A stretch of 64,000 nt of DNA from a phage. The stretch is taken from assembly GCA_019326865.1 (NCBI GenBank), contig GCA_019326865.1_4101.1; one strand, written 5' to 3'. Position 1 is the first letter of the stretch. Every line of letters starts with the position of its first letter. Positions 1 through 64,000 of the stretch are shown here, piece after piece. The position numbers and the translations under genes are program-made. The notes below the pieces were generated by a model. It saw only the letters and a program-made list of their open reading frames with translations, had not been told where the DNA came from and made no database searches.

Positions 1-34
1 TTAAAGTATTTTTGCAAAAAGTAATAAAAAGTAC

Positions 35-62
35 TTGCACGATTAAGAGATTAGAGTATAAT
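35..62 (+). promoter_or_regulatory. sigma70-like promoter
   Basis: TTGCAC-16nt-TATAAT upstream of ATG 108. Confidence 0.5.
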
Positions 63-107
63 TAATTACATCAAGACAAGACACCTTAACTAACTGAGGA
101 TATAAAG

Positions 108-260
108 ATGAATACTTATGAACTGGATTGTTTTACTTTACAAGTAATGTCAGTATGCAGTAAAAAAGATTGGTCATCAAAGGAATTTAAAGCAGTTATT
201 GCGTGTGCAAAACACGGCAAGACTATCAATGAAACGGCATCAATCATTGATAAACTTTAA
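108..260 (+). CDS. hypothetical small protein (50 aa)
   Basis: hand-translated MNTYELDCF...IIDKL; SD GAGGA 6 nt upstream; below ORF-track size cutoff. Confidence 0.4.
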   Translation: MNTYELDCFTLQVMSVCSKKDWSSKEFKAVIACAKHGKTINETASIIDKL

Positions 261-268
261 AAAATAGT

Positions 269-297
269 TTGACAATAGTTTTAAGTACTGCGATAAT
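269..297 (+). promoter_or_regulatory. sigma70-like promoter
   Basis: TTGACA-17nt-GATAAT; same cassette recurs at 6834. Confidence 0.55.
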
Positions 298-331
298 ACA
301 TACATCAACTACTGAATAGGAATAAAAAACA

Positions 332-559
332 ATGGCTATCGTAATCACTCGCGTAACTGGTACTACTGGCACTGCTTCAAATGTTGCTGTAATTACTAAT
401 AAGAAAGGTGCAGAATTACATTTTGCAATGGATAAATGGGCCGTTAATGAGTTTGGTCAGTGGGCAAGTGTAGCATACATTGAAACCTATCAAGTGCCAT
501 CGATTAGCTTAACTGATTTAGGTGTAGAACGTATCCTTTGCCTGGATGAATTAAATTAA
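332..559 (+). CDS. hypothetical protein (75 aa)
   Basis: ORF track; SD AGGAAT upstream; promoter 269-297. Confidence 0.6.
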   Translation: MAIVITRVTGTTGTASNVAVITNKKGAELHFAMDKWAVNEFGQWASVAYIETYQVPSISLTDLGVERILCLDELN

Positions 560-567
560 AAAAGTAC

Positions 568-595
568 TTGCAAAGTAAATCGAATAAAGTATAAT
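568..595 (+). promoter_or_regulatory. sigma70-like promoter with 5' leader hairpin
   Basis: TTGCAA-16nt-TATAAT, followed by GGGGAGAA..TTCTCCCC stem-loop 608-628 and SD AAGAGGAAA. Confidence 0.55.
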
Positions 596-645
596 ACATT
601 ACATCAAGGGGAGAAAATGGTTCTCCCCACTAAGAGGAAACTAAT

Positions 646-789
646 ATGAAAACTTGTCAATGTGGTAAAAAATCTATTACTGGTTTGAAACGGGGCGTTG
701 CACTTTGCCAGTACCATTATAATTTACAAGTATGGGGTAAAGAATGGGCCGATCAGGTGGAAGCAATAAAGAAAGCAAAAAGTAAGTAA
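646..789 (+). CDS. hypothetical Cys-rich small protein (47 aa)
   Basis: hand-translated MKTCQCGKK...CQYHY...; SD AAGAGGAAA; below ORF-track cutoff. Confidence 0.45.
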   Translation: MKTCQCGKKSITGLKRGVALCQYHYNLQVWGKEWADQVEAIKKAKSK

Positions 790-869
790 AAAATATTATC
801 ACAGTACTATTGACATAGATTGATAGTACTGGCATAATAGATTTTATTAAAACAACTGAGGAAATTAAA
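790..869. repeat. promoter cassette copy 1 (about 80 bp, near-identical copies at 1081 and 3744)
   Basis: AAAATATTATCACAGTACTATTGACATAGATTGATAGTACTGGCATAATAG...GAGGAAATTAAA; contains TTGACA(810)-17-CATAAT. Confidence 0.8.
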
Positions 870-1082
870 ATGGCTATCATTACTAAAATCAAAGTAAACA
901 AAACACTGGTTAAGCTGGAACAAGTGAAAGAAGGTTATAAAGTATCTTGGTGCGGTATGTATCGGACGTTCGCAGATGTAGACGATGCAATCAATTACTA
1001 CACTGACACGGTTAAAAACTTTGTTCGTGCTGATGTGGTTATGGCAGTGGCAACATATAAAGCATCAAAAGAAAGTAAGTAA
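870..1082 (+). CDS. hypothetical protein (70 aa)
   Basis: ORF track; cassette promoter and SD GAGGAAA. Confidence 0.6.
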   Translation: MAIITKIKVNKTLVKLEQVKEGYKVSWCGMYRTFADVDDAINYYTDTVKNFVRADVVMAVATYKASKESK

Positions 1083-1164
1083 AAATATTATCACAGTACT
1101 ATTGACATAGATTGATAGTACTGGCATAATAGATTTTATCAAGACAACTAAGAGGAAATTAAAA
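1081..1164. repeat. promoter cassette copy 2
   Basis: near-identical to 790-869; TTGACA(1101)-17-CATAAT. Confidence 0.8.
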
Positions 1165-1509
1165 ATGGCTAACATCAATACTATAGCAGCACAAAATATC
1201 AACCTGTCTTCTGTTGAAGTTGTACACATTGCCGCCCGGCGTTGGTTCCAGGCGTCTTATGGTAATACGTATTTCTCTTTAACGGTAGATGTTGAAATCA
1301 ATGGCGAATTTATTGAAGTAGTAAACGTGCCGTTCCAATATGGCTACGGGGATCATTTTGACACTGTAGCAATGGAAGAATTTAGCAAGGTTATTAATAT
1401 GGAAGGTAAAGAGTTTTTACGCGGTTCTTATCTTTCCCGTTTTTGCCGTGATAATAATATCACTGTTTATAGTTCTGTTAGTGATGTTAAACGCAAAAAA
1501 GATCTTTAA
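1165..1509 (+). CDS. hypothetical protein (114 aa), paralog of 7526..7849
   Basis: ORF track; shares GNTY, YGYG and C-terminal DVKRKKD with 7526..7849. Confidence 0.65.
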   Translation: MANINTIAAQNINLSSVEVVHIAARRWFQASYGNTYFSLTVDVEINGEFIEVVNVPFQYGYGDHFDTVAMEEFSKVINMEGKEFLRGSYLSRFCRDNNITVYSSVSDVKRKKDL

Positions 1510-1589
1510 TTAGCTTTACTTTATGCAGATACTTTGATATAGTGTCTGCATAGGGGAAAGAAATTAAATCAACTTAAGAGGATAGTAAA

Positions 1590-1859
1590 ATGAAAAATAT
1601 CAGTACTTTAATCGATGCAGGTACACATGTTCGTCGGTCTATGGTTGCAACCAGTTCTACAAAACAAGTAGCGAGCGGTTATCTTGTATTTGTGCACGAT
1701 GGAAAACTCCTGGAACGTTCAATCAATTTTGATGTTAAAAACAATTGCCGTTTTATTATCTTTCGCCGTGAACAATACAAGATCGACATTCCAGCAAAGC
1801 CCATTAGCGGGGCGTACAACGTGCAATCATTGTTTGAGCGTCAACCATACACCTATTAA
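1590..1859 (+). CDS. hypothetical protein (89 aa)
   Basis: ORF track; SD AAGAGGA upstream; overlapping 1684..1911 frame rejected. Confidence 0.6.
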   Translation: MKNISTLIDAGTHVRRSMVATSSTKQVASGYLVFVHDGKLLERSINFDVKNNCRFIIFRREQYKIDIPAKPISGAYNVQSLFERQPYTY

Positions 1860-1910
1860 TCAAAACATCGTTAGCGGTCGATTTAGGCCGCTTATACTGG
1901 GGATTATATA

Positions 1911-2183
1911 ATGAATACTAATCAAGTACTGAATGAGATTGAAAGCATCATTAAACCGATGAAGCGTACTGATGCAATGTTAACACCGGAAGAATGCCGC
2001 CTATATGAGCGTTATAGCGTCGAACAAGTCCAGGAAATGGCTATGGCTATCCCTGCCGTTCAACAGCCTGAGAATGCGTCACAGGACGTTACAGGGGATT
2101 ATAACATCAATCCAGTACTAGGGAAGATTACACCAATTACCGAAGAAGAAAAAGACTACTTAAGCCAGTACTTAAAAGGTTAA
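1911..2183 (+). CDS. hypothetical protein (90 aa)
   Basis: ORF track; tightly packed after previous gene. Confidence 0.55.
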   Translation: MNTNQVLNEIESIIKPMKRTDAMLTPEECRLYERYSVEQVQEMAMAIPAVQQPENASQDVTGDYNINPVLGKITPITEEEKDYLSQYLKG

Positions 2184-2188
2184 TTAAT

Positions 2189-2398
2189 ATGCTTACTGTA
2201 CAGGATAAGATCGACATCTTAAAGGTTAATATGTATGTGATTGATGCAGATCCTGAAAAAGTATTTGCATACGATGATTCTAATCGTAGTCCTTTTTATT
2301 GTAGTCATGTAGTTGGATATGTGCCGTTATCGTATGTTATCGAAAGAGTGGTTGATTCAGCATACAAACATTTTTTAGAAAATAGTACTTGCAATTAG
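2189..2398 (+). CDS. hypothetical protein (69 aa)
   Basis: ORF track. Confidence 0.5.
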   Translation: MLTVQDKIDILKVNMYVIDADPEKVFAYDDSNRSPFYCSHVVGYVPLSYVIERVVDSAYKHFLENSTCN

Positions 2399-2416
2399 TT
2401 TTTAGTACTGTATAAT
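2389..2416 (+). promoter_or_regulatory. sigma70-like promoter with 5' leader hairpin
   Basis: TTGCAA-16nt-TATAAT; GGGGGG..TTCTCCCC hairpin 2429-2448. Confidence 0.5.
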
Positions 2417-2466
2417 GTTTTACATGAAGGGGGGAAATGATTCTCCCCAATAACAGGAGAAACAAA

Positions 2467-2619
2467 ATGAAACAATACAACGCTCGGTTTGATGTTACTA
2501 TCGGCAACGGCAAAGGTCAATTCTCTTTCAGTGCTCGTAAGAGTTATACAGAAAACTTCTTGCGTAATTGTGCACTGACCGCCGCACAAATTAAACATTA
2601 TTTTCAGGCTAAAAAATGA
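2467..2619 (+). CDS. hypothetical small protein (50 aa)
   Basis: start moved from track ATG 2437 (inside hairpin loop) to ATG after SD AGGAGAAAC. Confidence 0.5.
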   Translation: MKQYNARFDVTIGNGKGQFSFSARKSYTENFLRNCALTAAQIKHYFQAKK

Positions 2620-2705
2620 AATCATTAGCTTATTATAGCTCGGCCCTGGTCGGTGCATTGATCGCGGCATTGTTAGTAGCTTATCTATTCTTTATGGTGA
2701 TTTAA
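2616..2705 (+). CDS. hypothetical hydrophobic peptide (29 aa)
   Basis: hand-translated MKSLAYYSSALVGALIAALLVAYLFFMVI; ATGA-coupled to upstream gene; single TM-like helix. Confidence 0.3.
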   Translation: MKSLAYYSSALVGALIAALLVAYLFFMVI

Positions 2706-2843
2706 ATGAATCCTAACGGTATAATTTACAGTACTCCTAAAACTAAAGCAGATAAAGCGGAAGCACGTAAAGCGAAAGTAAAGGAGTACATCAAGCAAGG
2801 TATGACACGAAAGGCGGCGATTCTAAAAGCTAAAAATAAATGA
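2706..2843 (+). CDS. hypothetical basic small protein (45 aa)
   Basis: hand-translated MNPNGIIYSTPKTKADKAEARKAK...; directly follows previous stop. Confidence 0.35.
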   Translation: MNPNGIIYSTPKTKADKAEARKAKVKEYIKQGMTRKAAILKAKNK

Positions 2844-2975
2844 AAAAAAGTGGTTGACTTCGGTCAGCCATTTTGCTATTATATATTCATTGAGAGATAG
2901 CTCACTAGCCCACAGGGTGCGGGAGTGTATCTATTATATAAGTATTGAGTACTGAAAACTATTTTAAAAGTACAT
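2844..2975. repeat. intergenic element R copy 1 (terminator-like hairpin + promoter + conserved core)
   Basis: hairpin TGGTTGAC-TTCG-GTCAGCCA with flanking A/T runs; TTGACT(2854)-17-TATTAT; core CTAGCCCACAGGGTGCGGGAGTGTATC. Confidence 0.75.
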
Positions 2976-2986
2976 GTATAAAGTAC

Positions 2987-3014
2987 TTGCAAACTATCTC
3001 AATTGGCGTATAAT
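2987..3014 (+). promoter_or_regulatory. sigma70-like promoter with 5' leader hairpin
   Basis: TTGCAA-16nt-TATAAT; AGGGGAAA..TTTCCCCT hairpin 3028-3046. Confidence 0.55.
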
Positions 3015-3065
3015 GTTTTACATCGAGAGGGGAAACGGTTTCCCCTAGTAATAAGGAATAAAATC

Positions 3066-3407
3066 ATGACTATTGCAATTGTACAATCTAACTTTGAAAA
3101 TGAAATCATCGCCCAAGCACTGCGTTTAAATGATGGTCGGGCCGAAATTAATTACGGTTTCAATTCAGGCGGTTGTGAAAAATATCAGTACTTTATAACT
3201 GCTGATGGCGGTGTCCTGGGTATTAATACAGTTATTGTAAACATTCAGAAAATTAATTTCAATGATCCAGACGATAGCCAGTTTTACATTGTAGGCGTAG
3301 ACGTGAACTATGAGGATGACTCACTAACTGATGATTACACTGGCGAGAAGTTAGAAAGTGCATACGGTGAAGATGATTATCAGTCAGTACCGGAAGATTT
3401 TGAATAA
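3066..3407 (+). CDS. hypothetical acidic protein (113 aa)
   Basis: start moved from track 3003 to ATG after SD AAGGAAT; acidic C-terminus. Confidence 0.6.
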   Translation: MTIAIVQSNFENEIIAQALRLNDGRAEINYGFNSGGCEKYQYFITADGGVLGINTVIVNIQKINFNDPDDSQFYIVGVDVNYEDDSLTDDYTGEKLESAYGEDDYQSVPEDFE

Positions 3408-3421
3408 TATTAAAAAATAGT

Positions 3422-3449
3422 TTGACAATAGATTATAGTACTGTATAAT
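3422..3449 (+). promoter_or_regulatory. sigma70-like promoter with double leader hairpin
   Basis: TTGACA-16nt-TATAAT; two stem-loops (GGGAAGTTTTAAAAACTTCCC and GGGAGAATAGTTCTCCCC) before SD. Confidence 0.55.
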
Positions 3450-3531
3450 AGTTTACATCAAGGGCGACGGGAAGTTTTAAAAACTTCCCTATAGGGAGAA
3501 TAGTTCTCCCCACTAACAGAGAGAAAACAAA

Positions 3532-3744
3532 ATGGCTAATATCTGCACTGTACTGAAAAATGCAAAACAAGTTTTATTTTCTGATCACGATCATTTAAAC
3601 AAGGATATTACTGGCGTTCGGAATATCAAAGATGTAAAACGTGTTATGGGTATCTATTGCAATATGAAACGTGTCGGCACGTTCGGTAATAAATTTCTAT
3701 ACCAGGCGGGGGATTACAATTTTACACTGACTATCATTAACTAA
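3532..3744 (+). CDS. hypothetical protein (70 aa)
   Basis: ORF track; SD AGAGAGAAA. Confidence 0.6.
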   Translation: MANICTVLKNAKQVLFSDHDHLNKDITGVRNIKDVKRVMGIYCNMKRVGTFGNKFLYQAGDYNFTLTIIN

Positions 3745-3823
3745 AAATATTATCACAGTACTATTGACATAGATTGATAGTACTGGCATAATAGATTTTA
3801 TTAAAACAACTGAGGAAATTAAA
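3744..3823. repeat. promoter cassette copy 3
   Basis: near-identical to 790-869; TTGACA(3764)-17-CATAAT. Confidence 0.8.
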
Positions 3824-4003
3824 ATGGCTATCATCGCAAAAACTGAAATCATCGGCCTGGATTCTATCATCATGACGTTTGAAGATCAAAAAGGTATGTA
3901 TGTAGTTTCCTATGGTGATTATGTTCGGGAGTATGAAACGGTAGACGAAGCCTTTGAAAGTTACATTCGCCAGGTGAATAAAGCATACGACGATTACCGC
4001 TAA
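3824..4003 (+). CDS. hypothetical protein (59 aa)
   Basis: hand-translated MAIIAKTEIIGLD...DDYR; same cassette and N-terminal MAII as 870..1082. Confidence 0.5.
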   Translation: MAIIAKTEIIGLDSIIMTFEDQKGMYVVSYGDYVREYETVDEAFESYIRQVNKAYDDYR

Positions 4004-4030
4004 AATATATTACCAGTACTATCAAAGCTA

Positions 4031-4058
4031 TTGACAACGTTTGATAGTACTGTATAAT
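4031..4058 (+). promoter_or_regulatory. sigma70-like promoter
   Basis: TTGACA-16nt-TATAAT. Confidence 0.55.
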
Positions 4059-4104
4059 AAGTTTTATCAACTGTAGTTAACTTAACAAAAGAGAGAGAAA
4101 CAAA

Positions 4105-4248
4105 ATGATCGCACTGGATTCATTCATCGATGCAGTTCTGGCAAAAACTGGCGAGGATCTGACCGCAGAACAATACGCGATGATCGAGCAATGCCAGCAA
4201 GACGGTAAATCGGTGAAAGATACTGTTAAGATTATCCGCAAGATGTAA
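4105..4248 (+). CDS. hypothetical small protein (47 aa)
   Basis: hand-translated MIALDSFIDAVLAKTGEDL...; SD AGAGAGAGAAA; followed by hairpin AGCCCA..TGGGCT. Confidence 0.45.
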   Translation: MIALDSFIDAVLAKTGEDLTAEQYAMIEQCQQDGKSVKDTVKIIRKM

Positions 4249-4354
4249 GATTATAAGCCCATTAGTTAACGCTGGTGGGCTTTAATCATTTACCCTATAC
4301 AATGCCAGTACTAAACCGTTTATCTCGTTAGAATGCATTACAGGACGTTTAACA

Positions 4355-4552
4355 ATGATTAGCATGAAATCAGTACAAAAACAAATAGAAACATTATCAA
4401 AAATTAAACGTAAACAGTACTCATTAGAATATAATATCAATGGTAACTATCATCTAATGAAAGAGAATAATTTTATCGTCATTGATGAATCATTGCAAAT
4501 TATTAGTATAGTACTGAAAGCATTAATTAATGATAGAAAAAGGTTAAAATAA
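4355..4552 (+). CDS. hypothetical protein (65 aa)
   Basis: ORF track; no strong promoter seen. Confidence 0.4.
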   Translation: MISMKSVQKQIETLSKIKRKQYSLEYNINGNYHLMKENNFIVIDESLQIISIVLKALINDRKRLK

Positions 4553-4809
4553 TGGCAGTAGGATTCGCGAAAGATGGAGCCGAGCAAGATGAGATTAACG
4601 CAGTTATTCAAGCCGCCGTTAACCACGCTAGAAAGCAAATTAACGCACAAATAGAATCACTGATACATTGCCTCGACTGCGGCGATAAAATCCCTGAGAA
4701 TCGCCGACAGGCTGTTAAGGGATGTAAGTACTGCATAACCTGCCAGGAAGATCATGATAGTACTTTTAAACGAGATCCGCGTAATTGTTGGCATAGATCT
4801 ATGAGATAA
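4552..4809 (+). CDS. TraR/DksA-type C4 zinc-finger protein
   Basis: CLDCGDKIPENRRQAVKGCKYCITCQ = C-x2-C-x17-C-x2-C typical of TraR/DksA fingers. Confidence 0.55.
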   Translation: MAVGFAKDGAEQDEINAVIQAAVNHARKQINAQIESLIHCLDCGDKIPENRRQAVKGCKYCITCQEDHDSTFKRDPRNCWHRSMR

Positions 4810-4816
4810 AAAGTAA

Positions 4817-4844
4817 TTGACAGTACTGAAAGATAGTGTATAAT
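4817..4844 (+). promoter_or_regulatory. sigma70-like promoter
   Basis: TTGACA-16nt-TATAAT. Confidence 0.55.
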
Positions 4845-4873
4845 GTTTTATATCTTAACTGAGGATAGAAATC

Positions 4874-5230
4874 ATGGGAATACAACATATCACGCTGACC
4901 ACTGACAATGGCGAGATCACTGGTTATCAAGTACAGGGCAAAGTAGCACAATTGCAGTACTGGTTTGTTAAACGTGGAATCATTGCACCGGATCTTGATT
5001 ATGACCGTGTAGCGTTTATTGATTCTCTTTATGTTGATCCTGAAAGTCGGGGCAATGGTGAAGGTAACGAATTAATGAATGCCTTTATTGATGCCGCCGA
5101 TGATTCAGATTGTATCATTTTAGAATGCGATACGGGAGAAGATAACGCCTTCAATCTTAAAGAATGGTATGAAGGTTTCGGATTCGAAGTACTGATCGAT
5201 AGTGAATATCCTATCATGATTTTATCATAG
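4874..5230 (+). CDS. small GNAT-family acetyltransferase-like protein
   Basis: VDPESRGNGEGNELM resembles GNAT motif A (R-G-x-G-x-G); NAFNLKEWYEGFGF resembles motif B. Confidence 0.5.
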   Translation: MGIQHITLTTDNGEITGYQVQGKVAQLQYWFVKRGIIAPDLDYDRVAFIDSLYVDPESRGNGEGNELMNAFIDAADDSDCIILECDTGEDNAFNLKEWYEGFGFEVLIDSEYPIMILS

Positions 5231-5244
5231 TACTAAAAAAGTAA

Positions 5245-5272
5245 TTGACAGTACTATCAGATAGTATATAAT
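5245..5272 (+). promoter_or_regulatory. sigma70-like promoter with 5' leader hairpin
   Basis: TTGACA-16nt-TATAAT; AGGGGAA..TTCCCCT hairpin 5283-5302. Confidence 0.55.
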
Positions 5273-5319
5273 GTTTTACATAGAGGGGAAACATCTTCCC
5301 CTACTAAGAGGAAAGAAAA

Positions 5320-5508
5320 ATGGAAAACTTATCAAGTATTTTAGTACAAGATGATTTTGGTAATCCTGGAAGTGCTATCATTGTTCGGGGTAATAAAGCA
5401 ACGTTTGTTATTGCTGGTGGACCTGTACAGCGTAGCATTAAAAACAATGCTGTTACTATTAATAATGTACGCTATCGCTTAGATAAAGAATTGATTCATA
5501 AACTGTAA
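5320..5508 (+). CDS. hypothetical protein (62 aa)
   Basis: ORF track; SD AAGAGGAAAG. Confidence 0.55.
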   Translation: MENLSSILVQDDFGNPGSAIIVRGNKATFVIAGGPVQRSIKNNAVTINNVRYRLDKELIHKL

Positions 5509-5535
5509 TATTAATTTAATAGAGGATAACAATAA

Positions 5536-5859
5536 ATGTACATTCATACTACTATCACAAAGGAAGTCCGTTGCCAGTTCGAAAGTATTCCGGGCGTATG
5601 TTTCATCACTGGTACGTTTTCCCCTGGTGATCGTGATAATCCAGTACTGTTACAGTTACGCCATCCATTATGGGATAAAGCATTTGATCTACCGTTGAAT
5701 GAATTCGCAACTACTGCTGAAAAGTACATTAAAAATATTCGCGAGAATGATCGACTATTCATTAATGCTTTTAGTGATTCCGCGTTAAGCGAGATCCACG
5801 GCGTATTGGTTGCAATCATGGAATCAATGGAGAAAACTAAATTCAAACAAGGTGAATAA
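5536..5859 (+). CDS. hypothetical protein (107 aa)
   Basis: ORF track; SD AGAGGATAA. Confidence 0.6.
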   Translation: MYIHTTITKEVRCQFESIPGVCFITGTFSPGDRDNPVLLQLRHPLWDKAFDLPLNEFATTAEKYIKNIRENDRLFINAFSDSALSEIHGVLVAIMESMEKTKFKQGE

Positions 5860-5865
5860 AAACTA

Positions 5866-5893
5866 TTGACAATGTAATCTAGTACTGTATAAT
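5866..5893 (+). promoter_or_regulatory. sigma70-like promoter with 5' leader hairpin
   Basis: TTGACA-16nt-TATAAT; GGGGAGAAATGATTCTCCC hairpin. Confidence 0.55.
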
Positions 5894-5943
5894 AAGTTAC
5901 ATGAAGGGGAGAAATGATTCTCCCTACTAAGAGGAAAGAAAAA

Positions 5944-6156
5944 ATGCAAGGTCAACTAATCGTTCGTAAATGGTCTGATACTAATGAAAAACCGTGGGAT
6001 GTACAATACATCGGACCGGATGGGGTATCACGTTATCAGCCTGGCGTAACGCATAGTACTGAGCAATATGCCGCCGCTCATCGTGAACGCCTGTTAGAAT
6101 CTATGCAACAGGGTTTAGGTGAAAAATTCATTCAAGATCATTGGCTGAAAGATTAA
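5944..6156 (+). CDS. hypothetical protein (70 aa)
   Basis: start moved from track 5914 (ATG in hairpin loop) to ATG after SD AAGAGGAAAG. Confidence 0.55.
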   Translation: MQGQLIVRKWSDTNEKPWDVQYIGPDGVSRYQPGVTHSTEQYAAAHRERLLESMQQGLGEKFIQDHWLKD

Positions 6157-6164
6157 AAAGTACT

Positions 6165-6191
6165 TGTGTAGTATAGAAAATAAAGTATAAT
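6165..6191 (+). promoter_or_regulatory. sigma70-like promoter with 5' leader hairpin
   Basis: TTGTGT-15nt-TATAAT; GGAAGGGGAATAGTTCCCCTCC hairpin. Confidence 0.45.
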
Positions 6192-6242
6192 GTTTAATAC
6201 AGGAAGGGGAATAGTTCCCCTCCTAACAAAAAGGAAAGTAAC

Positions 6243-6416
6243 ATGATTCATGTAGAATTGTCAGTACTGAGAGATTTGTTTTATCGGATGGGTACTACTG
6301 GCGAATATCCGAAGGGTGATACTGCAAAACTTTTTGTATCTCTCGACTTATGGCAACGCGAACAATTAGTAATGTCGTGGCGTAAAGGTAAAGCAGATCG
6401 CGAGGTGAAAGCATGA
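6243..6416 (+). CDS. hypothetical protein (57 aa)
   Basis: hand-translated MIHVELSVLRDLFYRMG...; SD AAAGGAAAG. Confidence 0.4.
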   Translation: MIHVELSVLRDLFYRMGTTGEYPKGDTAKLFVSLDLWQREQLVMSWRKGKADREVKA

Positions 6417-6562
6417 AAGAATTTTTATTCGAAGTAGTTTTTATTGGTGTAAGTAGTCACCAATTGATTCGCTCAAGTGGTTACAATGTTTGCCAGGCAT
6501 GGAATAACATTAAACAAATGTACCCGAACGCTATCACATATCGCAACCCAAAACAAGTTTAA
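6413..6562 (+). CDS. hypothetical protein (49 aa)
   Basis: hand-translated MKEFLFEVVFIGVSSHQ...; ATGA-coupled to upstream ORF. Confidence 0.35.
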   Translation: MKEFLFEVVFIGVSSHQLIRSSGYNVCQAWNNIKQMYPNAITYRNPKQV

Positions 6563-6570
6563 AAATAATT

Positions 6571-6705
6571 AAAAAAAGGATTGACTTCGGTCAGTCCTTT
6601 TTGCTATTATATATTCATTGAGAGATAGCTCACTAGCCCACAGGGTGCGGGAGTGTATCTATTATATGTTGGTGGGTGTATTATCTAGTACTGAAAACTA
6701 TTTGA
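6571..6705. repeat. intergenic element R copy 2
   Basis: hairpin GGATTGAC-TTCG-GTCAGTCC; TTGACT(6581)-18-TATTAT; conserved core as in copy 1. Confidence 0.75.
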
Positions 6706-6715
6706 TAAAAAGTAC

Positions 6716-6743
6716 TTGCATTGTACTTAGAATCAAGTATAAT
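6716..6743 (+). promoter_or_regulatory. sigma70-like promoter driving an ORF-less structured leader
   Basis: TTGCAT-16nt-TATAAT; followed by about 80 nt with nested inverted repeats and no ORF before the next promoter. Confidence 0.45.
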
Positions 6744-6833
6744 GTTTTACATCAGGACAGGGAACGAAATAAGTAACTTCCCGTTAAGTAGCCCAGGAGT
6801 AAGGCATACGAAAAACTCCCCTGATAAAATAGT

Positions 6834-6862
6834 TTGACAATAGTTTTAAGTACTGATAAAAT
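6834..6862 (+). promoter_or_regulatory. sigma70-like promoter
   Basis: TTGACA-17nt-TAAAAT; cassette homologous to 269-330. Confidence 0.5.
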
Positions 6863-6894
6863 AATCACATCAACTACTGATAAGGAAACATAAA

Positions 6895-7170
6895 ATGCGG
6901 GTTCTTCTGACAGCTAACGAAATCGAGCAAGTACTTACTACTAACCTGGAACAATGGAAACGTGAAGCAGATATCCAGGCGGTTCAATTGTTAAATGAGA
7001 AGTTAACGCCGGATGATTTAAGTAAGATTGTAGATCCTCAATTCTACGAAGATATTCACGACACCGCGTTAAGCGTCGAGGATGTACTAGATAAACACTA
7101 CATTGATACTAATTTACAGGGTTACGGTCGTAAAAATTTTATTACTATTCACGACATTTACAATAATTAA
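6895..7170 (+). CDS. hypothetical protein (91 aa)
   Basis: ORF track; SD AAGGAAAC. Confidence 0.6.
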   Translation: MRVLLTANEIEQVLTTNLEQWKREADIQAVQLLNEKLTPDDLSKIVDPQFYEDIHDTALSVEDVLDKHYIDTNLQGYGRKNFITIHDIYNN

Positions 7171-7173
7171 GTA

Positions 7174-7201
7174 TTGACAAAGTATCTTAGTACTGTATAA
7201 T
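7174..7201 (+). promoter_or_regulatory. sigma70-like promoter with 5' leader hairpin
   Basis: TTGACA-16nt-TATAAT; GAGGGGAATGGTTCCCCTC hairpin; cassette repeated at 7443. Confidence 0.6.
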
Positions 7202-7256
7202 AGTTTACATCAAGTGAGGGGAATGGTTCCCCTCCTAACAAAGAGAGAAATAAAAA

Positions 7257-7439
7257 ATGGCTAAGTGCACTATCTGTAAGAAAGAAATAGTATTAGTTCC
7301 AAGTGCCCGTGAGCGTGCAGCTCGGTTCGGTGGCAAAGCGTCAGACTATACAAAAATGTTTACTACTCATGCAAATTGCCAGGTAGCAAAACGTTCACAA
7401 GAAAGCGTAGAATTAATGCGTAAACTTTCCAAAAAATAA
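7257..7439 (+). CDS. hypothetical Cys-containing protein (60 aa)
   Basis: ORF track; CTIC...H..C possible zinc ligands. Confidence 0.55.
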   Translation: MAKCTICKKEIVLVPSARERAARFGGKASDYTKMFTTHANCQVAKRSQESVELMRKLSKK

Positions 7440-7442
7440 GTA

Positions 7443-7470
7443 TTGACAAAGTATCTTAGTACTGTATAAT
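7443..7470 (+). promoter_or_regulatory. sigma70-like promoter with 5' leader hairpin
   Basis: TTGACA-16nt-TATAAT; near-identical to 7174 cassette. Confidence 0.6.
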
Positions 7471-7525
7471 AGATTACATCAAGTGAGGGGAAACGGTTCC
7501 CCTCCTAACAAAGAGAGAAATAAAA

Positions 7526-7849
7526 ATGACTATGATCCTTGCCCAGAAAGTAGAACTGAAAATTGTAACTTCCTTTGACATTAAAGTTAATCGCTGGACT
7601 GATCGGAACGGTAATACTTACCACTCTTGCTACGTGTCTGCATTGATTGGTGATCGTTGGGAAGACTTGGGACACGAAACCTTTACATACGGTTACGGTA
7701 CGCAAGGCGAATACACTGGTTTGGAGATCATTAAAGAAACCGTTATAGGTTTCAACCCGAAAGAAAAAGTTATTCACCGCATCGAAAAAGAGATTAATAA
7801 AGAAATAACAGTTCGCTACTACGATGTAAAACGTAAGAAAGACATGTAA
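7526..7849 (+). CDS. hypothetical protein (107 aa), paralog of 1165..1509
   Basis: ORF track; shared YGYG and C-terminal DVKRKKD. Confidence 0.65.
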   Translation: MTMILAQKVELKIVTSFDIKVNRWTDRNGNTYHSCYVSALIGDRWEDLGHETFTYGYGTQGEYTGLEIIKETVIGFNPKEKVIHRIEKEINKEITVRYYDVKRKKDM

Positions 7850-7871
7850 TAGAATCCATTTAAAGTACTAT

Positions 7872-7900
7872 TTGACATTACACAGATAGTACTTTATAAT
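7872..7900 (+). promoter_or_regulatory. sigma70-like promoter
   Basis: TTGACA-17nt-TATAAT. Confidence 0.55.
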
Positions 7901-7935
7901 AGACTCTAACTTGTAGTATTAACTTAACTAATAGG

Positions 7936-8340
7936 ATGTATACCATGATTACTAAATTCTACGCTACCCGTGAAGCTGCCCGTATTGTTGCACGCGAGGA
8001 AGGAGCGGCATTTAAAGACATGGGCAAAGATGCACCGAAAGGCCAACGCTGGAGCGTACAGTTCAAAGAAATCTCTGATATTGTGAATTCACCTGAACCA
8101 GTACTGACAGCAGCAGAACAGAAGAAAGCTGATGAACTGGCGGCAATTCTTAACGCTCAAGATGAATTCGTCGAGGGTGCTGATATCCAGGTTGTAGTAA
8201 ATTCGAATGCATGGACTCACGCGGATCATCTGGCTAACCTGAAGCGTCCAAGCGTATTGATTCGCAACCATAAAGAGATCCGACACGACCGCAAGGGCAA
8301 CCGTGTTACTGTATACAGTAAACGCCGCCAGGTTATCTAA
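7936..8340 (+). CDS. hypothetical protein (134 aa)
   Basis: ORF track; alternative start ATG 7945; followed by terminator. Confidence 0.6.
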   Translation: MYTMITKFYATREAARIVAREEGAAFKDMGKDAPKGQRWSVQFKEISDIVNSPEPVLTAAEQKKADELAAILNAQDEFVEGADIQVVVNSNAWTHADHLANLKRPSVLIRNHKEIRHDRKGNRVTVYSKRRQVI

Positions 8341-8362
8341 TACCTAGCAGTACTAACAACAC

Positions 8363-8388
8363 GGCGGGATCTGTTCCCGCCTTTTTTA
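8363..8388 (+). terminator. rho-independent terminator
   Basis: GGCGGGA-TCTGT-TCCCGCC followed by TTTTTT. Confidence 0.7.
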
Positions 8389-8402
8389 CAGGATAAACTA
8401 AA

Positions 8403-8657
8403 ATGATTAAGGTAAAACTATCTAAAGATAATATCTTGCGGGTACACTATAAAGCCCCTCAGAGAATCATCACAAAGGCCGTACAGCTTGCGAATGAGTT
8501 TATTAATGGTAATCTATTACCTAGGAAGTTAAGCAACGGAAAACTGCGTGTAATCGATGTAGACACTAACAACAGAATAGTAATAGAGAATACCGGAAAG
8601 ATAAACCTATATGAACACCAACAATATAATAAGAAAATAAAACTAATTAGTCGTTGA
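8403..8657 (+). CDS. hypothetical protein (84 aa)
   Basis: ORF track. Confidence 0.55.
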   Translation: MIKVKLSKDNILRVHYKAPQRIITKAVQLANEFINGNLLPRKLSNGKLRVIDVDTNNRIVIENTGKINLYEHQQYNKKIKLISR

Positions 8658-8711
8658 CAGTACTCAAATGTTTTAGTACTATATATCTATACCAACACGG
8701 AGAGAAACAAA

Positions 8712-8930
8712 ATGAAATTATCTAAAATCGAAAAGAAAACTATTGACGTAGCTATCCAACATGGTTACACCTTTCGTAATGATTTACATTTTACCAATTT
8801 TCAACAAGGGTATCGTACTATTAAAAAACTAATTGACAAAGGTTTATTAGTTAAAGTAGACAACGGCAACGGCGTTGAATATCAACCAACACAGGACGCA
8901 TTTAATTTTAAGAAATATAATATTATCTAA
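8712..8930 (+). CDS. hypothetical protein (72 aa), possible winged-helix DNA binder
   Basis: ORF track; promoter TTGACA 8654; IKKLIDKGLLVKVDNGNG wing-like segment (weak). Confidence 0.5.
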   Translation: MKLSKIEKKTIDVAIQHGYTFRNDLHFTNFQQGYRTIKKLIDKGLLVKVDNGNGVEYQPTQDAFNFKKYNII

Positions 8931-8987
8931 TTGACAGTACTCAAATGTTTTAGTACTATATCTATACCAACACAGGAAAAAAACAAA

Positions 8988-9572
8988 ATGCGTAATTATA
9001 CTAAATTCATCCGTACACTGTCAGAAATGGAAACCAACAAAGAGATCTTGACAGCTTGTCGGTTAGCTGGTCTGGAGATCATCGGTGCGGGGTCTTCCCG
9101 TATTGTATTCGCTTTAAATGATCGGTTAGTGATTAAGGTCGCGAATTGTGATGCGGGTGTAGAACAAAATGAAACAGAATGTAAAGTATGGAATTTTTTA
9201 GATTATGACCGACCTCAGTTGAAACAGTTCTTTGCTAAAGTACATATGCATTTAAGCGATCCTGATAATATGTTTATTGTTATGGATCGGTTGAGTACTG
9301 CAAGTAAAGGCAGTGTAAAGCACGTTAACGCGTGCAACGAATTAAAGTACAATATTAAACGTAATGCAATCGAACGCCAGCACCGCTTTGCTGATGCACT
9401 ACAACACGTCGATGATACATTATCAACACTAACGATCAGAGATATCAGAAAACAGAATATCGGACAGGATCGAAATGGACTGATTAAAGTACTTGATTAT
9501 GGTTTAACCCGCAATATCTGGAATCAGTACTATAAAAAGCGTGATGTAAAAGCCGTAACTATAACACGATAA
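8988..9572 (+). CDS. compact protein-kinase-like protein (194 aa)
   Basis: start moved from track TTG 8931; Gly-loop IGAGSSRIVF, VIKV lysine, catalytic-loop-like RDIRKQN, DFG-like LDYG. Confidence 0.5.
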   Translation: MRNYTKFIRTLSEMETNKEILTACRLAGLEIIGAGSSRIVFALNDRLVIKVANCDAGVEQNETECKVWNFLDYDRPQLKQFFAKVHMHLSDPDNMFIVMDRLSTASKGSVKHVNACNELKYNIKRNAIERQHRFADALQHVDDTLSTLTIRDIRKQNIGQDRNGLIKVLDYGLTRNIWNQYYKKRDVKAVTITR

Positions 9573-9580
9573 AAAAGATT

Positions 9581-61130: not shown

Positions 61131-61136
61131 GGACAT

Positions 61137-61451
61137 ATGAATAAAGAACTTGCATATAAGGGTATCGAAAAGCTAAAGTTCGTTGAAAAGGAACTAATAG
61201 AATCAGTTGAAACAATGGTTGAAGATTACGTTTTTGATTTTAAGAAAACATTAATTGGATGTAAAGTCAAATGCTGGGATCATACCATTAGAGAATGGTT
61301 CAGTGCTATAATTCTTGATGTTAAAGTATCTCGAACTGGTATTGGTAACTTAGTAAATGGTGAATGCTTTGTATACACTGAATACAATAACGGTACAAGA
61401 CACCTTTCAAAAGGATGGCACAATCTCGAAGATGTAGAATTCATTGAGTAA
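61137..61451 (+). CDS. hypothetical protein (104 aa)
   Basis: ORF track; SD TGAGGA. Confidence 0.55.
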   Translation: MNKELAYKGIEKLKFVEKELIESVETMVEDYVFDFKKTLIGCKVKCWDHTIREWFSAIILDVKVSRTGIGNLVNGECFVYTEYNNGTRHLSKGWHNLEDVEFIE

Positions 61452-61463
61452 CAAGGAGTAATA

Positions 61464-62396
61464 ATGCCAACTATCACCTTAACAATTGGGTTGCCTGGGT
61501 GTGGTAAAACTACATGGGCAGTGCAAGAGATTAAAAACGCCAAATCTAAGACTATCAACATCAACCGTGATGATATTCGTGAATCTATGGCGGGGTCACA
61601 TGATGCTTACAAATTCAACGATGCTAATGAGCAGTACGTAACTACTTTACAGTTCAGTGCAGCAAATTTAGCAGCAGAGAATGGTTGGAACATCATCATA
61701 TCCGATACGAACCTTAAACAACATTTCCGTGATCTCTGGAAAGTATGGGCTAAAGATAATGATTATGATTACAAAGAAAAGAACTTCTATGATGATTTTG
61801 TACCTAATGAAGACCGTGGTGCAGATGTTCATGAATTCTTTAAGATTAAAGAGTTCGTAAAACTTTGTAAGAAATATAACCGCCAGCGTGAGCGTTCAGT
61901 ACAAGATAATATCATTGACACTATGGCAGATACTTACTATTATAGTAAAGCAATGCACATTGGTTACTATGGTAATTCAAGAGAAGCCGCTGTTATCGTT
62001 GATATTGACGGAACTCTTGCTCATAAATGGGGTCGTAATCCTTACGATGAAAGTACTGTACTACAAGATACACCAGATGAAGAAGTTATTTTGTCTATTA
62101 TCGCTGAAGCAGTTTTCCATAAACGTAAGATTATTGTAATGAGTGGGCGTACTGAAGGGTGTCGTGCAGACACAGAACAGTGGCTTAAGAATTGGGGTGT
62201 TCCTTACGATGCATTGTTTATGCGAGGCATCGATGATAAACGACCCGATGATGTGGTAAAATATGAGTTGTATATGAATAACGTCGTGCATCATTACGAT
62301 GTTAAAAAAGTATACGATGACAGATCACAAGTCGTATTCATGTGGCGTAAACTACTTGGATTAAAAGTGATGCAAGTTGCAGAAGGAAATTTCTGA
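61464..62396 (+). CDS. pnk: polynucleotide 5'-kinase/3'-phosphatase (T4 Pnk-like)
   Basis: P-loop GLPGCGKTT; NINRDDIRES; HAD phosphatase motif IVDIDGTLA; C-terminus WRKLLGLKVMQVAEGNF aligns with T4 Pnk as recalled. Confidence 0.85.
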   Translation: MPTITLTIGLPGCGKTTWAVQEIKNAKSKTININRDDIRESMAGSHDAYKFNDANEQYVTTLQFSAANLAAENGWNIIISDTNLKQHFRDLWKVWAKDNDYDYKEKNFYDDFVPNEDRGADVHEFFKIKEFVKLCKKYNRQRERSVQDNIIDTMADTYYYSKAMHIGYYGNSREAAVIVDIDGTLAHKWGRNPYDESTVLQDTPDEEVILSIIAEAVFHKRKIIVMSGRTEGCRADTEQWLKNWGVPYDALFMRGIDDKRPDDVVKYELYMNNVVHHYDVKKVYDDRSQVVFMWRKLLGLKVMQVAEGNF

Positions 62397-62403
62397 CACA
62401 AAA

Positions 62404-62430
62404 GGGATCAATGTATGATCCCTTTTTCTT
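62404..62430 (+). terminator. rho-independent terminator
   Basis: GGGATCA-ATGTA-TGATCCC followed by TTTTTC. Confidence 0.7.
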
Positions 62431-62621
62431 TTAAGGTATATTATAATGAATGTAAAAACACAGATGTTATTACAAAAAGAATACTTAGAAAATATAGAAA
62501 TGTTCTATAGATTGTCTTTATACGAAAATAAACATAAAAAATATAACTTTTCTAAACAACTAACCACAAGTACTAATGATTATCTATTTTCATCAATGTT
62601 TTATGTGAGAGGTTTATTATA

Positions 62622-62879
62622 ATGGATAAATTTCACACAGATATAACACAGATAGGTAATCTTATCAATAGTCTAATTACTGATTTAGAAGAAAAGTACT
62701 TAGGTCGAAATGTATACGTTGAAATGTATGAAACATATGGTGTTATTGATATGATTTATTACAGTGCATTGAAGTGTGAAATACGTTTAACAGTATGTTT
62801 GTTTGAAAAAGATACATTCAACAGAAGTACTGCAATTCGTCAGGTTGGTGTAGATGACATTGAATTATATGAGGAATAA
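62622..62879 (+). CDS. hypothetical protein (85 aa)
   Basis: ORF track. Confidence 0.5.
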   Translation: MDKFHTDITQIGNLINSLITDLEEKYLGRNVYVEMYETYGVIDMIYYSALKCEIRLTVCLFEKDTFNRSTAIRQVGVDDIELYEE

Positions 62880-63133
62880 TGATGTTTGAACAGGACGTAG
62901 AGCTATTCAAAAGACATATTGAATATTTGACTGTTTTAGAGAATGATTTAACCACAAAATACAAAGGAATTAGAGTCCAGTGTTGGTATGATGACTGGGA
63001 TTATAAAAGGGAACTTACTATTGACCGAATTTATTTCAGTGATGGTGTACTGAATGTACATGGTGTAAATGATTTTGGTCATTCATATACATATTCTAAT
63101 AATGCTAAATTTAAAAGGATCTGCAATGAATGA
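62879..63133 (+). CDS. hypothetical protein (84 aa)
   Basis: ORF track; stop/start overlap with upstream. Confidence 0.5.
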   Translation: MMFEQDVELFKRHIEYLTVLENDLTTKYKGIRVQCWYDDWDYKRELTIDRIYFSDGVLNVHGVNDFGHSYTYSNNAKFKRICNE

Positions 63134-63428
63134 ATATTATCATAATTTATTCGATTACATAAAACTAATAGATGATCTTTCTTTTGAATTTCTCAGTACT
63201 GAAAAAGTTGATGAACCTCTCTATTATGATTGTATTAGTTCACTGTGTTTAGATGAAAAAGAGATATTAGCAAATAACTTACCATCCACGGTCTGTGTAA
63301 TCAATGGTTCCAAGGCTGTGGTGTCTGAGGTTAATTTTCATAAATCACTTAATACAATTGTTTACAAGTTCGATAACACTTGGTTTAATCACGTAACTAG
63401 TAATATTAAATCTGTGAGATTTTTATGA
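63126..63428 (+). CDS. hypothetical protein (100 aa)
   Basis: track ORF 63069..63428; start moved to ATG 63126 (MNEYYHNL) overlapping upstream stop. Confidence 0.5.
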   Translation: MNEYYHNLFDYIKLIDDLSFEFLSTEKVDEPLYYDCISSLCLDEKEILANNLPSTVCVINGSKAVVSEVNFHKSLNTIVYKFDNTWFNHVTSNIKSVRFL

Positions 63429-63721
63429 ATATAAAAAAATTATTTGAACAAGTAAATTTATTGTACTGGTGTTCAGACGGCTCAGATAAGGAATATAGTG
63501 AAGTTTATTTAGAACTATTTAGAACTGAAATACATCTAATTCGAAGATACCTAATTGATAACAAAACTGAAGTAAAAGTTAGATACCATAATGGTACTTT
63601 AAAGAATGGTATAATTATTGGATTGATAGTTACACGAATGTCCAGTAATATTAAAGTTGCAGTAAGATTAATGACTGATGATGGTGTCTACACAATAGAA
63701 GCTAATGAGATTATATATTAA
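63425..63721 (+). CDS. hypothetical protein (98 aa)
   Basis: ORF track; ATGA-coupled. Confidence 0.5.
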   Translation: MNIKKLFEQVNLLYWCSDGSDKEYSEVYLELFRTEIHLIRRYLIDNKTEVKVRYHNGTLKNGIIIGLIVTRMSSNIKVAVRLMTDDGVYTIEANEIIY

Positions 63722-64000
63722 ATGGATATACAAACATTCAATAAACTAAAGTACTATGATAATGGTTTTGTATTAATAATTAACGAACTTGATAGTATAC
63801 CATACGAATATCATAATCAAGTAATGAATATAGTAAAAAATATATGTGAAGAACTAAAAAGTATATTTAAAAATGAATATGTTTATGATTTAGGTAATAA
63901 TAGAACAAAACTATACATAAAGAAATTCTGGGGAACACATTGTGGTTTGATGGTCGATTTGGGTTTAAGTTTAGACAATAATTTCGAATCATGTTCATTA
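63722..64000 (+). CDS. hypothetical protein, 3'-truncated by window edge
   Basis: ATG 63722 right after upstream stop; open frame MDIQTFNKLKYYDNGF... runs to window end. Confidence 0.4.
   Translation, partial: MDIQTFNKLKYYDNGFVLIINELDSIPYEYHNQVMNIVKNICEELKSIFKNEYVYDLGNNRTKLYIKKFWGTHCGLMVDLGLSLDNNFESCSL

Follow-up and report, generated by a model that had tools for sequence, protein, structure and literature searches.

Here, we describe a large excess of the palindromic hexamer AGTACT in a 64,000-nucleotide stretch of phage DNA (contig GCA_019326865.1_4101.1; hereafter the window, at its full length) and in the phage clade to which it belongs. The window shares 97% identity with Escherichia phage UE-S1 and about 91-93% identity with phages 121Q, PBECO4, phAPEC6, and Sharanji, and is, as judged from its sequence, part of a 121Q/PBECO4-type Rak2-like jumbo coliphage of the genus Asteriusvirus, i.e., myoviruses of ~350 kb. 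Its plausible genes all lie on the plus strand and are mostly small ORFans. Our analyses support that the enrichment represents a functional DNA-level site maintained by selection. Copies of AGTACT are conserved in all reading frames and in non-coding DNA, codon and dipeptide usage is bent towards them, and their flanks are mirror-symmetric, which upholds the proposal of a functional site made in a first-pass annotation of this DNA. We lean, if only slightly, towards reading AGTACT as a selected, density-type recognition site of a putative symmetric reader of double-stranded DNA.

Excess of AGTACT and selection on the DNA sequence

The window (positions 1-64000) contains 202 copies of AGTACT with the extended consensus tt.C-AGTACT-G.aa, 38 of them in the form CAGTACTG. 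Dinucleotide-preserving shuffles yielded 16.9 copies (standard deviation 3.9, largest 29), and none of 100 shuffles reached 202. Markov models predicted 21 copies at zero order, 38 at order 2, and 78 at order 3. At the maximal order (order 4) the expectation rose to 168.5 and the ratio was only 1.2; this comparison is circular and was dropped, since AGTACT itself supplies most of the pentamers, with 202 of 322 AGTAC and 202 of 269 GTACT in the window falling within it. It was replaced by backgrounds from which AGTACT was masked and by synonymous-codon shuffles. In the complete 121Q genome (348 kb), which we assembled as reference for genome-wide counts, 903 copies stand against 99.8 expected, and the masked background still gave a 10.7-fold excess at order 1 and a 7.6-fold excess at order 2. 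One-mismatch variants of AGTACT in 121Q, including those that keep AGTAC, reached 1.2-2.5-fold only. The octamer CAGTACTG occurs 190 times in 121Q (3.6 expected), and every 5-kb bin of that genome is enriched, with 5-39 copies vs. 1-3 expected. The over-representation that had been suspected by eye is thus borne out by k-mer counting at orders 0-3, by the shuffles, and on the masked background. Literature searches for publications describing an AGTACT motif gave nothing relevant.

AGTACT is the sole enriched palindromic hexamer in the window; the runner-up, ATGCAT, is found at 1.6 times its expectation. Twenty-three palindromic hexamers are missing altogether and most other GC-containing ones are at zero, and in 121Q GGTACC and CGTACG are both absent (~29 and ~17 expected). 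Such an almost complete loss of GC-containing palindromes of this length resembles classical restriction avoidance and suggests that the DNA is not globally hypermodified. AGTACT in these same genomes fails this pattern and reverses its sign, being 10-12 times above expectation, not below. Among shorter palindromes of 121Q, GATC is at 0.57 times (620 vs. 1091) and GGCC at 0.36 times expectation.

Repeats do not explain the excess because the 903 sites of 121Q occupy 903 distinct 30-mers in 755 context families. The 202 sites of the window likewise represent 196 distinct 30-mer contexts, and each position flanking the hexamer carries less than 0.4 bit of information. An origin from dispersed repeat elements of the kind of repetitive extragenic palindromes or miniature inverted-repeat transposable elements was ruled out, as there are no shared extended flanks.

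About 148 of the window sites are coding (63, 33, and 52 in the three frames) and 54 are intergenic, at densities of 2.6 and 7.3 per kb, respectively. Synonymous shuffling within each gene, which keeps the protein and its codon usage fixed, gave 44.7±6.0 coding sites (maximum 63), compared with 149 observed. In 121Q, Ser-Thr is encoded as AGT-ACT 366 times (105 expected from codon usage), the share of AGT among Ser codons increases from 30% overall to 77% before ACT, and that of TAC among Tyr codons from 27% to 79% in the AG-TAC-T context. Even the dipeptides Ser-Thr and Val-Leu are ~40% over-represented. Codon choice and the synonymous shuffle together rule out a codon or dipeptide origin, and a mere artefact of base composition, codon usage, or repeats is excluded as well. 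In 121Q, site density is 2.39 per kb in genes of one strand and 2.17 per kb in those of the other, with a uniform distribution along genes. We also note that 121Q is annotated with a tRNA-Ser of anticodon ACT (121Q 75464-75555), which would directly read AGT, the Ser codon that is inflated by the motif.

At 91% identity between the window and 121Q, 172 of 191 sites (90%) are intact compared with 64% of all hexamers. Divergence per base is 0.5-4.7% within AGTACT and ~8% in its flanks, and above-background conservation is seen in each frame and in non-coding DNA. Comparison at greater distance (~74% identity), for which we used orthologous capsid-region blocks of 121Q, Munch, GAP32, and RaK2, showed site totals that match those of 121Q (Munch 50/51, GAP32 49/48, RaK2 61/55). 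Positions shared with 121Q made up 31-38% of the sites in these phages, and 19-21% of background hexamers. Spacing outside the early gene cluster is near-Poisson (coefficient of variation 0.90), and neither regular spacing nor helical phasing was found genome-wide, only a pair peak at 20-24 bp in promoters. Matched totals, few common positions, and near-Poisson spacing argue that the selected property is density and not position. A packaging signal, also considered in the first-pass annotation, is unlikely with sites spread almost randomly over the whole genome.

Conservation could also be mimicked by a selfish or mutational process, such as biased gene conversion, in which a site-specific nuclease would cleave near-cognate sequences of co-infecting genomes, or biased repair. 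A drive of this kind could look like purifying selection, and homing-type nucleases are encoded by both phage lineages that carry the excess (HNH and GIY-YIG nucleases in 121Q, a SegE-like GIY-YIG nuclease in the prophages described below). Moreover, where a site differs between the window and 121Q, the other state is mostly AGTTCT (13 times), while AGAACT was never found. However, an A4-to-T change is conservative in each reading frame (Thr/Ser, Tyr/Phe, Val=Val), and protein constraint, which channels gain and loss of sites, thereby explains this asymmetry. The dominance of AGTTCT also fits a general excess of AGTTC and GTTC. None of the one-mismatch neighbours is depleted, as a source sequence should be, and no Vsr-like source/sink signature was detected among them; known repair biases such as that of Vsr have effects below two-fold. 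With plain artefacts excluded in addition, we regard a selfish or mutational origin as quite unlikely.

The flanks of AGTACT are symmetric. Position -1 is C in 44% of the sites in 121Q, mirrored by G at +6 in 47%; further out, the preferences for T (-2 to -4) and A (-7 to -9) are matched by the complementary bases on the opposite side, and the symmetry extends to about ±9 bp. AGTACT is its own reverse complement and, with symmetric flanks, lacks the orientation bias expected of a word like Chi or the FtsK-orienting polar sequences. Mirror-symmetric flanks fit recognition of double-stranded DNA by a reader with two-fold symmetry.

Occurrence in related phages, hosts, and a second phage lineage

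Enrichment is a shared property of Rak2-like phages of enterobacterial hosts. In the capsid region, observed-to-expected ratios are 5.9 in 121Q, 5.2 in Munch (Salmonella), 6.8 in GAP32 (Cronobacter), and 8.0 in RaK2 (Klebsiella), and an IMG/VR contig likened to Yersinia phage fHe-Yen9-04 has 37 copies where 5.6 are expected. The excess is thus found in phages of Escherichia, Salmonella, Cronobacter, Klebsiella, and Yersinia. It is absent from Vibrio phage 2.275.O (8 copies vs. 11.9 expected), the capsid protein of which is 79% identical, and no AGTACT enrichment was observed in environmental relatives with capsid proteins at most 69% identical. A 50-kb sample of the Escherichia coli K-12 genome, which served as host sample, is at chance level (3 vs. 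4.8). Two other phages avoid the hexamer: Pseudomonas phage PA5oct (positions 65850-107025; 0 vs. 14.3, P about 6e-7) and coliphage alia (positions 91478-116452; 0 vs. 8.1). Its absence there suggests that enzymes cutting AGTACT are a real selective pressure on other phages.

A scan of IMG/VR for paired CAGTACTG octamers retrieved, besides Rak2-like contigs, ~30 loci of a lambda-like siphovirus group (31-35 kb, GC content 0.36-0.45) with 1,081 AGTACT in 267 kb, i.e., 4.0 per kb. Members of this group are integrated in Leclercia chromosomes, where their GC content of ~0.43 is set off from ~0.54 in the host flank. In 20 kb of prophage DNA, 97 copies were counted vs. 6.5 expected, and 86 of the 97 are coding, compared with 19.7±4.2 after synonymous shuffling; CAGTACTG occurs 39 times in 20 kb. 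The flanks are again mirror-symmetric, with C at -1 in 54-63% of the sites, G at +6, T at -3/-4, and A at -7, and other palindromes are purged in this lineage too. The prophages encode a tape measure protein, a J-like fibre, a lambda-type portal, a gpA terminase, a serine recombinase, and the SegE-like GIY-YIG nuclease; the sole gene in common with 121Q or GAP32 is a T4-lysozyme-type endolysin, and no DNA-recognition gene is shared. The same extended motif tt.CAGTACTG.aa has thus arisen by convergence in two phage lineages that infect Enterobacterales and are not related to each other.

The flanks also bear on a possible link to host cell division. The binding site of the host nucleoid-occlusion protein SlmA, GTGAGTACTCAC, has an identical AGTACT core, and the phage sites could recruit or titrate SlmA to block division of the host. 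The surrounding bases, however, do not fit an SlmA site, and we rejected this explanation as barely credible. The outer GT and AC flanks of SlmA sites are found at 37 and 43 of the 903 sites in 121Q, compared with ~52 expected, and the 348-kb genome contains two GTnAGTACTnAC and no full site. At position -1, depletion is strongest for G, the base found in SlmA sites (10% in 121Q, 6-8% in the prophages), and C is preferred. SlmA is also present in Vibrio, although the relative from this host shows no AGTACT excess.

Terminal repeat, early promoters, and AGTACT-poor blocks

The hexamer had been described as enriched throughout the window, which is true of its overall count of 202 and not of two blocks, at positions 13559-18088 and 20387-27444, that are at chance level (all window features below are given on the plus strand). 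Density is 5.75 per kb in positions 1-13558, 0.22 per kb (one copy) in 13559-18088, 6.96 per kb in a short rich stretch between the poor blocks (18089-20386; 16 sites), 0.14 per kb (one copy) in 20387-27444, and 2.90 per kb in 27445-64000. The latter part, with 106 sites nearly all located in small ORFan genes, represents the ordinary genome-wide regime.

The left part of the window, the densest apart from the short stretch at 18089-20386, belongs to a terminal repeat. The ends of phage E9.1 (PP886230) form an exact repeat of 20,107 bp whose inner edge maps to window positions ~13,330-13,345, and AGTACT in E9.1 occurs 10-18 times per 2 kb within the repeat and not at all just past its edge. 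Positions 1-13340 of the window therefore constitute the inner ~13.3 kb of a direct terminal repeat of ~20 kb, which holds ~45 small early genes with their own sigma70-type promoters. For phage Sharanji, a terminal repeat of 20,668 bp was determined by PhageTerm (PMC11895373). The idea that the start of the Sharanji record is a physical terminus next to the second poor block was unsupported, since E9.1 places the repeat edge at ~13.3 kb. The AGTACT-dense early-promoter cluster stops at the same place as the inner boundary of the repeat. Pfam matches among 70 small ORFs from window positions 1-20.5 kb and 48-64 kb include a DksA/TraR zinc finger and a GNAT acetyltransferase, both of which are annotated within the early cluster of the terminal repeat in relatives.

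Within the repeat, AGTACT is built into promoter cores. Among 21 strict sigma70 matches in window positions 1-12.1 kb, 17 have AGTACT in their core, and the other four are probable terminator hairpins. These four copies of aaaaaGGGATTGACTCCGGTCAGTCCCttt...TATTAT (at 2854, 6581, 9591, and 11875) score as sigma70 promoters and are the only such matches without AGTACT; each forms a GC-rich hairpin with a T run behind it and probably serves as an intrinsic terminator in the early cluster. In 14 early promoters AGTACT is located 1-2 nt upstream of the -10 element, and only with the 2-nt gap does a TG fall at -15/-14, namely the TG of AGTACTG in the class with CATAAT, GATAAT, or TAAAAT as -10. An example of the 1-nt gap is the promoter at 7174-7201 (TTGACA-N9-AGTACT-G-TATAAT). 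In two other registers the hexamer overlaps the 3' end of the -35 element (TTGACAGTACT) or lies 1 nt upstream of it (AGTACTaTTGACA). The overlap is seen at 4817-4844 (TTGACAGTACT, N11, TATAAT) and recurs at window positions 5245 and 11568 and three times in GAP32. A promoter with two sites spans 803-838, with AGTACT at 803-808, the -35 element TTGACA at 810-815, AGTACT again at 825-830, and the -10 element CATAAT at 833-838; T830 and G831 are at -15/-14 and form an extended -10, and the same two-site type is present at 1095 and 3757. In the AAAGTACTTGCA class, as at 563-595, the final T of AGTACT (563-568) is also the first base of the -35 element TTGCAA (568-573), followed by the -10 element TATAAT (590-595). 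All three promoter strings listed in the first-pass annotation were recovered, AAAGTACTTGCA eight times, GATAGTACTGGCATAAT three times, and TTAGTACTGTATAAT four times. The same promoter registers are used by 6 of 22 strict promoters in GAP32. Beyond early promoters, no fixed register of AGTACT was found at late-type promoters, gene starts, or gene ends.

Early promoter clusters for host takeover are known from the terminal repeats of other large virulent phages such as SPO1 and T5. The phages studied here resemble them in having a ~20-kb terminal repeat packed with small genes and strong sigma70-type promoters, and differ in that a 6-bp palindrome, common to the rest of the genome, is placed in the promoter cores at three registers, which is undescribed in SPO1 and T5.

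Could AGTACT then be a matter of early promoter architecture only, with intragenic copies being incidental? The fixed registers, the TG at -15/-14, and the higher intergenic density speak for this view, and it stands for the promoter subclass. It is refuted globally, and we regard it as very improbable as an account of the whole. About 148 of the 202 sites (~73%) in the window and most of the 903 in 121Q are intragenic, including sites in late structural genes and on both strands, so that a promoter role cannot explain the phenomenon. These intragenic sites are nine-fold enriched and conserved, late-type promoters show no association, and in the prophage lineage coding sites make up 86 of 97. 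The earlier suggestion that the hexamer is part of an extended promoter is thus right for the 14 early promoters in which it abuts the -10, with a true extended -10 at the 2-nt gap, and does not extend to the mostly intragenic remainder.

The first poor block (13559-18088) is located within a tandem array (13419-19853) of ~30 paralogous genes of ~70 amino acids with a conserved ...LGTNYQE.YV... motif, which adjoins the terminal repeat in the unique region. Nine TGTACT in this block are mostly found at one paralogous Val-Leu position. We dropped the idea that the poor blocks reflect a polar motif diverging around a centre because the TGTACT of the left block are at a single paralogous Val-Leu codon pair.

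The second poor block (20387-27444), here called island B, is of a different nature. It contains 34 co-oriented AGTACA (3.5 expected), no TGTACT (the reverse complement), and 15 TGTACA, and the AGTACA copies show the same preference for C at -1 and G at +6 as AGTACT sites. Island B is kept across Asteriusvirus sub-clades as a block of 7-8 kb (161685-169374 in 121Q) with 8-15 TGTACA, and 121Q, TH47, and ECO103 have 42, 42, and 45 AGTACA vs. 0, 1, and 0 TGTACT. At 80% identity, 61% of the AGTACA sites are intact compared with 36% in the background. The genes of island B are ORFans and distant kin of a downstream paralog family with a ...FQxSLV... motif; comparison of F-Q-Y-S codons between island B and its paralogs had no informative outcome. 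Phage T7 is known for 36 co-oriented type III sites of EcoP15I (CAGCAG), a bias read as escape from type III cleavage. Island B is similar in having 34-45 copies of an asymmetric hexamer in one orientation, but CAGCAG is not enriched in T7, whereas AGTACA is about ten-fold enriched and confined to a single block of 7-8 kb.

Island B speaks for a strand-specific, single-strand signal AGTAC or CAGTAC that would be read in single-stranded DNA or RNA, e.g., a primase start, a Chi-like word for a helicase-nuclease, or an RNA-level signal, for which the palindrome would be the cheapest way of placement on two strands. In line with this, the one-stranded AGTACA copies share the flanks and the above-background conservation, CAGTACV and BGTACTG are still 2-5-fold enriched, and CAGTACTG carries CTG, the trinucleotide recognized by E. 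coli DnaG, on both strands. Outside island B, however, variants that keep the pentamer (AGTACA/C/G, T/G/CGTACT) are only 1.2-2.5-fold enriched, just like those that break it, compared with 10.7-fold for the palindrome. Flank preferences are mirror-symmetric, and site density does not differ between genes of the two orientations or upstream of transcription starts. A single-strand signal is therefore unlikely in our view.

Candidate readers, known systems, and significance

The reading that we slightly favour as the most parsimonious, recognition of AGTACT by a symmetric reader, may be outlined as follows. The motif tt.C-AGTACT-G.aa is a highly iterated palindrome maintained by selection on the DNA sequence itself, and the putative reader would be a dimeric binding protein or a restriction-modification-type enzyme with two-fold symmetry that is active in cells of Enterobacterales. 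Each site would provide a small benefit; individual sites turn over, with their number held at ~1 per 385 bp, ~40 times the density in the host, so that the reader could mark or occupy the phage genome from end to end. AGTACT is part of the core of nearly every early sigma70 promoter of the terminal repeat, in three fixed registers, and a reader that occupies or modifies it there would also gate early transcription, with the TG doubling as extended -10 where the site abuts the -10 element. The reader would act on early transcription because AGTACT is placed in early promoter cores. Convergence without a common gene in phages of one host order points to a reader that comes from the cell or from one of the partners. 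The sequence comparisons demonstrate the enrichment, the selection at DNA level, the symmetry, the distribution over clades and hosts, the promoter registers, and the convergence of a second lineage; that a protein reads AGTACT, which protein this may be, and what its occupancy would do, we infer.

Domain searches offered no candidate. We scanned 70 small window ORFs, 10 mid-sized ORFs of the window and 121Q, 10 large 121Q proteins, and the prophage genes (25 of 29 matched families listed) against Pfam. No DNA-recognition domain was found via Pfam, PHROG, NCBIfam, or sequences in the Protein Data Bank among the small, mid-sized, and large proteins, two ORFs of 284 amino acids, and the island B genes, and no nuclease domain of a suitable kind was present among the window ORFs or the large 121Q proteins of unknown function that were scanned. 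An XRE-type helix-turn-helix protein encoded beside the phage sigma factor in GAP32 and CBB was rejected as reader, since it has no homologue in 121Q. Other matches were incidental to this search: one of the 70 small ORFs has a ParE-like toxin domain, and matches to a T4-type RNA ligase 1 and a polynucleotide kinase-phosphatase fit 121Q-annotated genes that correspond to window positions ~59-62 kb.

The first-pass annotation had raised the possibility that a Dam-like enzyme of the window targets AGTACT. More generally, AGTACT could be the target of a phage-encoded modification, by this or another methyltransferase, that protects from ScaI/Eco255I-type cleavage, serves as a replication-coupled switch of early promoters, or both. 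As a contiguous palindrome of 6 bp, AGTACT is of a size typical for targets of type II restriction-modification. Because other phages avoid AGTACT (alia and PA5oct), cutting enzymes are suggested, and a phage with 900 sites should need protection. AGTACT overlaps -35 and -10 elements, as sites do in known Dam-regulated promoters. According to a published report (PMC3622015), RaK2 DNA carries methylation and withstands methylation-sensitive enzymes.

The enzymes at hand, however, point elsewhere. The gene at 51412-51933 (plus strand) encodes a PF05869 'Dam' N6-adenine methyltransferase (Pfam E=7e-32), whose nearest relatives outside the clade are methylase-annotated genes of lactococcal 936-type and staphylococcal phages (43-45% identity). 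M.Phi93DAM from that phage group, the nearest type with experimental characterization that we found, methylates GATC, as revealed by single-molecule real-time sequencing and DpnI/DpnII digestion (PMC4190342). By this homology, the Dam-like enzyme of the window is probably specific for GATC and not part of the AGTACT system, and we rejected it as modifier. Bisulfite data of RaK2 showed CpG methylation, associated with a C5 methyltransferase that is conserved in the clade and has a 51%-identical homologue in alia, the phage that avoids AGTACT; this enzyme was rejected likewise. The equally enriched Leclercia prophages have no methyltransferase domain among the matches listed (25 of 29 matched Pfam families). 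Furthermore, protection accounts for tolerance and not for a ten-fold excess, and symmetric flank preferences to ±9 bp are untypical of methyltransferase targets. The proposal for the Dam-like enzyme was accordingly not sustained, and we consider phage-encoded modification of AGTACT rather unlikely.

It is tempting to go beyond a symmetric reader and propose that Rak2-like phages tell their own from host DNA by a density code, with the reader protecting or organizing the genome and timing the early promoters, and with the prophages having converged on the same code. We put this forward tentatively, as possible though doubtful. In such a scheme the reader might be a host component that both lineages exploit, or the prophage might mimic the self-mark of the jumbo phage against superinfection, and island B with its co-oriented AGTACA would represent a directional form of this code.

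Several observations weigh against recognition of AGTACT by a symmetric reader. Helix-turn-helix, ribbon-helix-helix, and restriction-modification-type domains were all missing from the Pfam scans of the window, 121Q, and prophage sets described above (for the prophages, among the 25 of 29 matched families listed), and we know of no E. coli protein that binds CAGTACTG. The host sample shows no bias for or against AGTACT, which would be odd if a core host protein reads the site. Two conserved blocks do without AGTACT, and the asymmetric variant in island B is not predicted by a simple model of a symmetric dimer. The published promoter table of CBB does not show AGTACT as a regular element. Selfish gene-conversion drive could finally provide conservation without any benefit to the phage.

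The closest precedent is HIP1 (GCGATCGC), the highly iterated palindrome of cyanobacteria, which is found in all frames and between genes, is lineage-specific, and shows positional turnover. AGTACT is similarly far above expectation in all frames and between genes, specific to lineages, and maintained with turnover. HIP1, however, is an octamer of cellular genomes that contains targets of resident methyltransferases (GATC, CGATCG), whereas AGTACT is a hexamer of viral genomes that are otherwise purged of palindromes and whose hosts do not carry the motif. No cognate methyltransferase was found, those of the clade pointing to GATC and CpG by homology and published bisulfite data, and AGTACT, unlike HIP1, is wired into early promoter cores. 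Chi (read by RecBCD), the DNA uptake sequences DUS/USS, and GATC (Dam/SeqA/MutH) share with AGTACT that copies are dispersed, individual effects are small, and number matters over position; all of them are read by a dedicated protein and set one class of DNA apart from another. Yet Chi and the uptake sequences are not symmetric, have an orientation, and label the DNA of the cell itself, and GATC is not globally enriched in E. coli, while AGTACT is a perfect palindrome that marks phage rather than host DNA. The Chi octamer GCTGGTGG itself occurs 18 times on the plus and 11 times on the minus strand of 121Q (~2.3 expected at zero order); CACCAG, CTGGTG, and GCTGGT are three-fold enriched, and usage of GCT and GGT codons may be part of the cause.

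Short palindromes are expected to be lost from phage genomes, and the selected ten-fold excess of AGTACT runs counter to this expectation, with ~900 copies per genome and a strength that suffices to shift amino-acid content. Its independent rise in two lineages that infect the same host order and have no DNA-recognition gene in common implies an undescribed sequence-specific DNA transaction during phage infection of Enterobacterales. Engineering or recoding of therapeutic jumbo phages is also concerned, as synonymous changes would unknowingly erase AGTACT sites. If the reader exists, it could represent a new route of self/non-self discrimination, a new host factor, or a new switch of early genes in phages that do not form a nucleus-like compartment.

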